Source: a virus (taxonomy: Duplodnaviria; Heunggongvirae; Uroviricota; Caudoviricetes). From it: DNA of 10,678 nt. Of this stretch, positions 8,872 to 10,678 are shown one piece after another. The stretch lies in the IMG/VR virus record IMGVR_UViG_2684623081_000001; one strand, written 5' to 3'. Made by a program: the position numbers and the translations under genes. The first letter of the stretch is position 1. Every line of letters starts with the position of its first letter. Below the pieces are notes generated by a model. The model was not told the DNA's origin, ran no database searches, and worked only from the letters and a program-made list of their open reading frames with translations.

Positions 8872-8892
8872 ACTAGTGCTTGGATTCTCACC

Positions 8893-8921
8893 AATAAAAA
8901 ACGCCCGGCGGCAACCGAGCG
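8893..8921 (-). terminator. Phage lambda t0 intrinsic terminator, oriented to stop the cat transcript
   Basis: Minus-strand hairpin CGCUCGG-UUGCCG-CCGGGCG followed by UUUUUUAUU. The flanking 79 nt (8893-8971, minus) match my recollection of lambda oop RNA. Confidence 0.85.
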
Positions 8922-8998
8922 TTCTGAACAAATCCAGATGGAGTTCTGAGGTCATTACTGGATCTATCAACAGGAGTCCAAGCGAGCTCGATATCAAA

Positions 8999-9658
8999 TT
9001 ACGCCCCGCCCTGCCACTCATCGCAGTACTGTTGTAATTCATTAAGCATTCTGCCGACATGGAAGCCATCACAAACGGCATGATGAACCTGAATCGCCAG
9101 CGGCATCAGCACCTTGTCGCCTTGCGTATAATATTTGCCCATGGTGAAAACGGGGGCGAAGAAGTTGTCCATATTGGCCACGTTTAAATCAAAACTGGTG
9201 AAACTCACCCAGGGATTGGCTGAGACGAAAAACATATTCTCAATAAACCCTTTAGGGAAATAGGCCAGGTTTTCACCGTAACACGCCACATCTTGCGAAT
9301 ATATGTGTAGAAACTGCCGGAAATCGTCGTGGTATTCGCTCCAGAGCGATGAAAACGTTTCAGTTTGCTCATGGAAAACGGTGTAACAAGGGTGAACACT
9401 ATCCCATATCACCAGCTCACCGTCTTTCATTGCCATACGGAATTCCGGATGAGCATTCATCAGGCGGGCAAGAATGTGAATAAAGGCCGGATAAAACTTG
9501 TGCTTATTTTTCTTTACGGTCTTTAAAAAGGCCGTAATATCCAGCTGAACGGTCTGGTTATAGGTACATTGAGCAACTGACTGAAATGCCTCAAAATGTT
9601 CTTTACGATGCCATTGGGATATATCAACGGTGGTATATCCAGTGATTTTTTTCTCCAT
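8999..9658 (-). CDS. cat: Chloramphenicol acetyltransferase, type I (Tn9/pACYC184-type), 219 aa
   Basis: Full-length sequence recognised ([25 protein letters not shown] ... [28 protein letters not shown]). Confidence 0.97.
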
Positions 9659-9790
9659 TTTAGCTTCCTTAGCTCCTGAAAATCTCGATAACTCAAAAAA
9701 TACGCCCGGTAGTGATCTTATTTCATTATGGTGAAAGTTGGAACCTCTTACGTGCCGATCAACGTCTCATTTTCGCCAGATATCGACGTC
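9659..9790 (-). promoter_or_regulatory. cat promoter and 5'UTR (Tn9/pACYC184-derived), up to the AatII site
   Basis: Minus-strand sequence ACGTTGATCGGCACGTAAGAGGTTCCAACTTTCACCATAATGAAATAAGATCACTACCGGGCGTATTTTTTGAGTTATCGAGATTTTCAGGAGCTAAGGAAGCTAAA immediately precedes the cat ATG. Confidence 0.9.
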
Positions 9791-9865
9791 TAAGAAACCA
9801 TTATTATCGTGACATTAACCTATAAAAATAGGCGTATCACGAGGCCCTTTCGTCTTCACCTCGAG

Positions 9866-9925
9866 GATAAATATCTAACACCGTGCGTGTTGACTATTTT
9901 ACCTCTGGCGGTGATAATGGTTGCA
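9866..9925 (+). promoter_or_regulatory. Phage lambda PR promoter with operators OR2 (9876-9892) and OR1 (9900-9916); OR3 truncated at the XhoI site
   Basis: -35 TTGACT at 9890-9895, 17-bp spacer, -10 GATAAT at 9913-9918, expected start at A 9925. Operator sequences TAACACCGTGCGTGTTG and TACCTCTGGCGGTGATA recognised. Confidence 0.92.
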
Positions 9926-9938
9926 TGTACTAGAATTC

Positions 9939-9953
9939 ATTAAAGAGGAGAAA
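9939..9953 (+). promoter_or_regulatory. Synthetic strong ribosome-binding site (ATTAAAGAGGAGAAA) between EcoRI and KpnI
   Basis: GAGGAG core at 9945-9950, about 11 nt upstream of the ATG at 9962; the characteristic pZ-vector RBS arrangement. Confidence 0.9.
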
Positions 9954-9961
9954 GGTACCGC

Positions 9962-10678
9962 ATGCGTAAAGGAGAAGAACTTTTCACTGGAGTTGTCCCA
10001 ATTCTTGTTGAATTAGATGGTGATGTTAATGGGCACAAATTTTCTGTCAGTGGAGAGGGTGAAGGTGATGCAACATACGGAAAACTTACCCTTAAATTTA
10101 TTTGCACTACTGGAAAACTACCTGTTCCATGGCCAACACTTGTCACTACTTTCGGTTATGGTCTAAAATGCTTTGCTAGATACCCAGATCATATGAAACG
10201 GCATGACTTTTTCAAGAGTGCCATGCCCGAAGGTTATGTACAGGAAAGAACTATATTTTTCAAAGATGACGGGAACTACAAGACACGTGCTGAAGTCAAG
10301 TTTGAAGGTGATACCCTTGTTAATAGAATCGAGTTAAAAGGTATTGATTTTAAAGAAGATGGAAACATTCTTGGACACAAATTGGAATACAACTATAACT
10401 CACACAATGTATACATCATGGCAGACAAACAAAAGAATGGAATCAAAGTTAACTTCAAAATTAGACACAACATTGAAGATGGAAGCGTTCAACTAGCAGA
10501 CCATTATCAACAAAATACTCCAATTGGCGATGGCCCTGTCCTTTTACCAGACAACCATTACCTGTCCTATCAATCTGCCCTTTCGAAAGATCCCAACGAA
10601 AAGAGAGACCACATGGTCCTTCTTGAGTTTGTAACAGCTGCTGGGATTACACATGGCATGGATGAACTATACAAATAA
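9962..10678 (+). CDS. yfp: Yellow fluorescent protein, an Aequorea victoria GFP variant (S65G, V68L, Q69K, S72A, T203Y; also S2R, Q80R), 238 aa
   Basis: Full-length GFP fold sequence with GYG chromophore ([21 protein letters not shown]) and LSYQSALS at position 203. Jellyfish-type AT-rich codon usage. Stop codon is the last three bases of the window. Confidence 0.97.

Follow-up and report, generated by a model that had tools for sequence, protein, structure and literature searches.

The right-hand part (positions 8842-10678) of the IMG/VR virus record IMGVR_UViG_2684623081_000001, a stretch of 10,678 nucleotides (nt) that was analysed as a whole and is called the window in the following, is with hardly any doubt part of the engineered Escherichia coli allele intS(intC)::[cat, lambda PR-yfp], the MRR allele of Elowitz et al. 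(2002). In this allele, a chloramphenicol resistance gene (cat) and a yellow fluorescent protein (YFP) gene behind the lambda PR promoter take the place of the integrase gene of the cryptic prophage CPS-53/KplE1. The construct is already known and published and does not represent new biology. The anatomy of the locus, its junctions, the sources of its parts and the identity with the strains named below were computed, while the strain history was taken from papers.

Identity with E. coli MGY and KLY

All 10,678 of the 10,678 bases of the window are identical to the chromosomes of E. coli MGY (NZ_CP019629.1) and E. coli KLY (NZ_CP008801.1), which bears out the original prediction, made from the letters of the DNA, that the source is a constructed laboratory strain. 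When all complete E. coli genomes were searched, positions 8600-10678 were recovered completely and at 100% in two of them, MGY and KLY, and the 20-kb loci of these two strains are identical to each other. The allele of MRR, MGY and KLY, known from Elowitz et al. (2002) and from strains of the Balaban laboratory, is characterised by a lambda PR-YFP fusion and a chloramphenicol marker at the integrase gene adjoining the transfer RNA (tRNA) gene argW, and this is the arrangement found here. Locus, junctions, marker, promoter, fluorescent protein and the private variants at 9809 and 9338 are held in common, and the window shows no difference from MGY or KLY.

The published strain history agrees with this assignment. 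The MGY record gives its source as 'P1 of YFP-CAM to MG1655 from E. coli stock center'; according to the papers, both MGY and KLY received the "YFP-Cam cassette" via P1 transduction from MRR. This strain, obtained as a gift from Elowitz et al. 2002, is described as MC4100 galK::lambdaPR-CFP intC::lambdaPR-YFP (PMC2872608). Single-cell expression strains with promoter-fluorescent protein cassettes at a prophage integrase locus, which the original prediction had mentioned, thus do exist in the form of MRR. The two gene names refer to the integrase adjoining argW, which is called intC in EDL933 and intS in K-12 (PMC2951348). In PMC4272514, MGY is described as derived from MG1655 and expressing yfp, and KLY as a related strain into which an F plasmid is integrated. 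The KLY chromosome is ~75 kb longer than that of MGY, which fits the published F plasmid integration.

The chromosomal position of the locus could be compared with the published geometry as well. With oriC at about 3.926 Mb, intS at 2.4665 Mb and the sister galK cassette at ~0.78 Mb in another strain (see below) lie roughly 1.46 and 1.50 Mb from the origin. These distances fit the symmetric placement of intC and galK about the replication origin that was published for the reporter pair (PMC2872608).

Private variants within the cassette are informative about its descent. Window positions 9785-9858 differ from the Tn3 sequence upstream of bla (as in pBR322) by one mismatch, an A>G change at 9809 (ttatcAtgac to ttatcGtgac). 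It is present in MGY and KLY and in none of the 5000 best-scoring plasmid matches, including pKD071 (MK753226.1), a public plasmid in the style of the pZ expression vectors. The spacer as a whole is 98.6-98.8% identical to at least 5000 plasmid records, with none at 100% among the matches listed. The change is probably a mutation that arose during polymerase chain reaction (PCR) or cloning and is private to the cassette lineage, for which it is a useful marker. The second variant lies in cat: positions 8996-9778 match catA1 of R100 at 782 of 783 positions, and the sole difference, at 9338, is synonymous (Ser107, AGT>AGC), leaves the protein unchanged (WP_000412211.1) and is also common to MGY and KLY. 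As both the pZ components and the intC site are publicly available, the design could in principle have been rebuilt in another laboratory strain outside the MRR descent. However, the window shares both variants with MGY and KLY and its primer-derived junctions are identical to theirs to the base. An independent re-creation is therefore very unlikely, and descent from MRR is the reading that we follow.

Insert boundaries and mode of integration

Comparison with E. coli MG1655 (NC_000913.3) places the left junction at 8841/8842, 30 nt to the left of the position 8871/8872 that had been proposed earlier. The insert starts at 8842 and is 1,999 bp long. The window holds its first 1,837 bp (8842-10678), and 162 bp more follow in the source genome. 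The original prediction had placed the cassette at 8872-10678; this DNA is indeed engineered, but the insert begins earlier, with one end of a p15A plasmid origin, and runs past the window. In exchange for the 1,999 bp, MG1655 positions 2466491..2467669 (1,179 bp) were lost, comprising 54 bp upstream of intS and 1,125 of the 1,158 bp of intS itself. The flanks show 0 mismatches to MG1655 in 8,841 bp on the left and 0 in 2,332 bp on the right, where the native sequence resumes at 2466490. Comparison of the junctions with MG1655 revealed no target-site duplication, insertion sequence (IS) element or attachment (att) sites at the insert locus. Allele replacement with a linear PCR product is marked by a precise swap that leaves the flanks intact and creates no target-site duplication, with vector-derived template sequence (here 30 nt of origin) at each end, and the insert is a clean allele replacement. 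Base composition gave no signal at the junction.

The two p15A 30-mers (30/30 each) lie 796 bp apart, end to end, on one strand in a laboratory plasmid and in a natural 2.3-kb plasmid. Since p15A sequence of this length stands at both ends of the insert, the cassette would correspond to a complete pZA-type plasmid without the origin, amplified with outward primers that probably annealed to the ends of the origin. The 30 nt at the left end would then represent the annealing part of one of the primers and mark the true left junction.

An assembly chimera or vector contamination would imply that plasmid reads were misjoined to the prophage and that no such junction existed in the cell. The window stops exactly at the YFP stop codon, which leaves the right junction out of view, and laboratory vectors are common contaminants. 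Yet in the complete genomes the right junction returns to MG1655 at 2466490 and closes a precise 1,179-bp replacement. Moreover, the plasmid origin is missing but for the 30-nt primer sites, as for a PCR product and unlike a plasmid contaminant, and the construction has been published. Both junctions are also clean, and they recur without any difference in two complete assemblies that were deposited separately. Such a chimera is thus extremely improbable, and misassembly is excluded as far as can be judged from sequence.

Modules of the cassette

The replacement allele is composed of modules (Table 1), and the joints between them are each a 6-bp restriction site. Within the window these are SpeI (8872), SacI (8984), AatII (9785), XhoI (9860), EcoRI (9933), KpnI (9954), SphI (9960) and HindIII (10677). 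Further sites at 10694 and 10805 (XbaI and AvrII) lie past the window end, and an extra EcoRI site is found inside cat at 9440. The right-hand DNA had been called synthetic and composed of parts of unrelated origin joined at restriction sites. Every part named then is present in the order given, and the exact matches to unrelated sources exclude chance.

Table 1 Features of the window and of the adjoining end of the insert. Positions are those of the window.
Feature	Position	Strand	Remarks
Native E. coli K-12 DNA, cryptic prophage CPS-53/KplE1	1..8841		Left flank of the engineered allele; torI to yfdG and intS tail
torI	1-201	minus	
yfdI	6049-7380	minus	
yfdH	7377-8297	minus	
yfdG	8294-8656	minus	
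intS (formerly intC) remnant	8809..8841	minus	Last 33 nt of the integrase coding sequence, spared by the replacement
30 nt, one end of the p15A origin module	8842..8871	none	Identical to the origin end of pKD071 and of a natural 2.3-kb plasmid from the same replicon cluster
SpeI, lambda t0 (oop) terminator, SacI module	8872..8989	minus	118/118 to pKD071
Tn9-type catA1 segment	8996..9778	minus	Coding sequence 8999-9658 (219 amino acids) and 120 bp of its own upstream region (9659-9778) with promoter
AatII, 74-bp Tn3/pBR322 spacer (upstream of bla), XhoI	9785..9865	plus	
Wild-type lambda PR fragment	9866..9932	plus	67/67 to lambda 37964-38030
EcoRI, synthetic ribosome-binding site (attaaagaggagaaa), KpnI and SphI linker into the start codon	9933..9961	plus	Read from the sequence
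yfp, 238-amino-acid Aequorea GFP derivative	9962..10678	plus	Window ends with the stop codon; the HindIII site spans this end
HindIII, XbaI, rrnB T1, AvrII, 30 nt of the other p15A end	past the window end		In this order

Window positions 8883-8978 are identical to lambda J02459 38587-38682 (96/96) and comprise the end of cII and the oop/t0 terminator region. A terminator scan located a hairpin with a T-run on the minus strand (8925..8898), in the same direction as cat. The same scan gave a plus-strand hit for rrnB T1, which matches MG1655 4171751-4171849 at 99 of 99 positions and lies downstream of yfp. Both elements presumably act as terminators. In Rfam, the insert with its flanks matched the argW tRNA only and no family for t0/oop or T1. 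The 219-amino-acid protein encoded on the minus strand is a type A chloramphenicol acetyltransferase (Pfam CAT, E=6.8e-115; NCBIfam chloram_CatA, 314.8 bits at a cut-off of 270). Its gene was trimmed to 3 bp past the stop codon and 120 bp upstream, while in R100 IS1 adjoins cat. The IS1-flanked cat with target-site duplication that defines the Tn9/IS1 composite transposon was not found, as there is no IS1 in the locus.

The lambda PR fragment, which a promoter scan also detected on the plus strand (10/12), contains OR2 (9876-9892), OR1 (9900-9916), the -35 element TTGACT (9890-9895) and the -10 element GATAAT (9913-9918). According to the operator coordinates of the lambda record, only 4 nt of OR3 are included. 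The reporter protein belongs to the GFP family, as indicated by a Pfam GFP match and by GFP and YFP chains in the PDB at E-values of about 1e-160; NCBIfam held no model matching it. Compared to wild-type Aequorea GFP (UniProt P42212), it carries the changes S2R, S65G, V68L, Q69K, S72A, Q80R and T203Y. We take S65G/V68L/S72A/T203Y together with Q69K to be the classic yellow variant, and S2R and Q80R are presumably changes of the cloning lineage. In RefSeq, the protein (WP_038430632.1) is labelled 'hypothetical protein'; the same protein is found in MGY, KLY and the galK cassette of the strain described below. A 72-nt lambda cII tail within the t0 module (8878-8949) is labelled there as a partial hypothetical-protein pseudogene. 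These automatic labels therefore give no hint that the DNA is synthetic.

The composition of the insert also bears on a natural origin, by which a Tn9-like transposon or recombination with a lambdoid phage would have brought cat and lambda DNA into CPS-53. While catA1 is widespread on natural plasmids, and t0 and PR occur in many lambdoid phages, the locus contains neither IS1 copies nor a target-site duplication or att sites, and cat is trimmed. The lambda pieces are just 96 and 67 bp long, reordered and split by cat, with a 6-bp restriction site at each joint, and the insert further contains p15A ends, a fragment of the rrnB operon and a jellyfish gene that bears engineered substitutions. 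The probability of natural acquisition is thus practically nil, and the modules are best read as those of a laboratory construct.

Relation to pZ vectors and to other reporter cassettes

The architecture had been ascribed to the pZ family of expression vectors. These vectors, which were defined by Lutz and Bujard (1997), share with the cassette the order SpeI-t0-SacI-marker-AatII-spacer-XhoI-promoter-EcoRI-RBS-KpnI...HindIII-XbaI-T1-AvrII-origin (RBS, ribosome-binding site) of modules and unique sites, taken here as the pZ definition. In the cassette, lambda t0 follows the resistance marker, and the cloning site is followed by rrnB T1. Of the origin module between AvrII and SpeI just two 30-nt p15A ends are present, the origin itself being absent, as would be expected for an integrated PCR product. 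The module boundaries are identical to those of pKD071, with 118/118 matching positions in SpeI-t0-SacI, 115/115 in XbaI-T1-AvrII and 75/76 from the spacer to XhoI. The p15A ends with the adjoining site match at 35/35 each, and the AvrII/SpeI abutment is identical. The alignment to vector sequences that had been proposed as a check thus gave 99-100% identity in the shared backbone modules, in a comparison to a pZ-style plasmid and not to the original pZA31-type record.

The promoter slot (XhoI-EcoRI), however, contains 67 bp of unmodified lambda PR and not an engineered pZ promoter. The standard promoters of the series are presumably PLtetO-1, PLlacO-1, PA1lacO-1 and Plac/ara-1. Furthermore, pZ vectors are plasmids, whereas the cassette is integrated in the chromosome and carries the private spacer change at 9809. 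The cassette is a derivative built in the pZ frame and not a catalogue pZ vector: the pZ ascription stands for the order of sites and the module boundaries, but not for the promoter. A p15A (pZA-type) plasmid is supported as the source vector. In PLSDB, no match to the whole cassette was found at 80% or more, and only parts (cat, spacer, gfp) were matched, which reflects the content of the collection and does not count against a vector origin.

A sister cassette is present in galK of E. coli IGC_EcoliInv_1.1 (NZ_CP054665.1, 779509-786536), a mouse-gut colonisation strain. It shares the SpeI-t0-SacI module (119/119), the protein WP_038430632.1 and the T1 end. In contrast to the allele in the window, it is located in galK, carries a TEM bla gene instead of cat and differs in the promoter region (across 9785-10811, the identity is 96%, with gaps). 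Its match to the insert begins at SpeI (8872), and the left p15A end is unmatched. A related cat and gfp cassette with 97% identity was detected in the O157:H7 'laboratory control strain' NZ_CP176687.1, and two Vibrio plasmids from fish and mussel (CP076070.1, CP076065.1) contain the stretch from the AatII-spacer to gfp at 93.5%. Engineered reporter DNA therefore sits in environmental-looking records.

Native prophage flank

Window positions 1-8841 correspond to MG1655 NC_000913.3 2476510..2467670 with 0 mismatches (100% identity). The gene order is torI, yfdT, yfdS, yfdR, yfdQ, yfdP, yfdO, yfdN, yfdM, yfdL, yfdK, tfaS, yodE, yfdI, yfdH and yfdG. In MG1655, intS occupies 2466545..2467702, and the identity to MG1655 stops within this gene at 2467670, which is window position 8841. 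An open reading frame of 90 amino acids crosses the junction on the minus strand (8809-9081). It begins inside the 3' end of cat in a different frame, crosses t0 and what is left of p15A, and takes in the final 11 codons of intS. As a chimera made by the junction, it is almost certainly without meaning. The window edges coincide with gene boundaries, the end of the torI coding sequence at 1 and the YFP stop codon at 10678, and the terminator behind yfp and the right junction fall outside.

Proposed construction and function

Together with the strain history from the papers, the anatomy of the locus suggests the following course of events. The cassette would have been amplified by PCR from a modular expression plasmid of the pZA type (p15A origin, chloramphenicol marker) with primers directed outward from the origin ends. 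The product would then have been recombined into the chromosome, where it replaced the CPS-53/KplE1 integrase gene next to argW. Later, the allele was moved by P1 transduction into MG1655, which gave MGY, and into KL16, which gave KLY. The window accordingly comes from MGY, KLY or a descendant of these strains.

Regarding function, cat would be transcribed on the minus strand, with its own Tn9 promoter, and confer chloramphenicol resistance, which would have allowed selection during recombination and P1 transduction. Lambda t0 would stop the cat transcript before it reaches yfdG and the yfdGHI genes. On the other strand, sigma-70 RNA polymerase would start at lambda PR, the strong synthetic ribosome-binding site would drive YFP synthesis, and rrnB T1 would end the yfp transcript before the convergent argW gene. 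With OR1 and OR2 present, PR should be repressible by lambda CI, which in MRR is reportedly supplied from a plasmid circuit. Because CI is not mentioned in the descriptions of MGY and KLY, YFP is probably constitutive in these strains and may act as a cell label, which agrees with the papers.

Nothing of substance weighs against the assignment, but its basis should be borne in mind. Later papers, through their strain tables, provide the connection to the 2002 construct, and the window does not distinguish MGY from KLY. The pZ assignment, although supported, is based on the general architecture of these vectors and on the match to pKD071. In addition, the absence of CI is taken from strain descriptions and not from the host genome sequence.

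Consequences for the record and for the prophage

For the interpretation of the record, all DNA from 8842 onward has to be regarded as synthetic. The 'hypothetical protein' at 9962-10678 is YFP, and the integrase is missing by design and not through natural decay. The source of the window is assigned to the MGY/KLY strain family, which is used in research on antibiotic tolerance and persistence. The value of this assignment lies in provenance bookkeeping, and windows of this kind should be filtered from scans for natural novelty.

Compared to the native attL-intS region of CPS-53/KplE1 in MG1655, the flanks (argW on one side, yfdG onward on the other) are identical, whereas intS and the 54 bp upstream of it are deleted. 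IntS acts together with TorI as the recombinase for KplE1 excision, and the intS promoter overlaps the attL region (PMC2951348). The deleted upstream stretch corresponds to MG1655 2466491-2466544, and its loss may have removed part of the attL regulatory region. Because intS and its promoter region are deleted, the engineered prophage is likely locked in the chromosome and would not undergo TorI-driven excision in MGY, KLY or evolved lines derived from them. If this is true, it would constitute an unrecognised difference from 'wild-type' MG1655 in work on cryptic prophages with the MGY and KLY tolerance and persistence lines.

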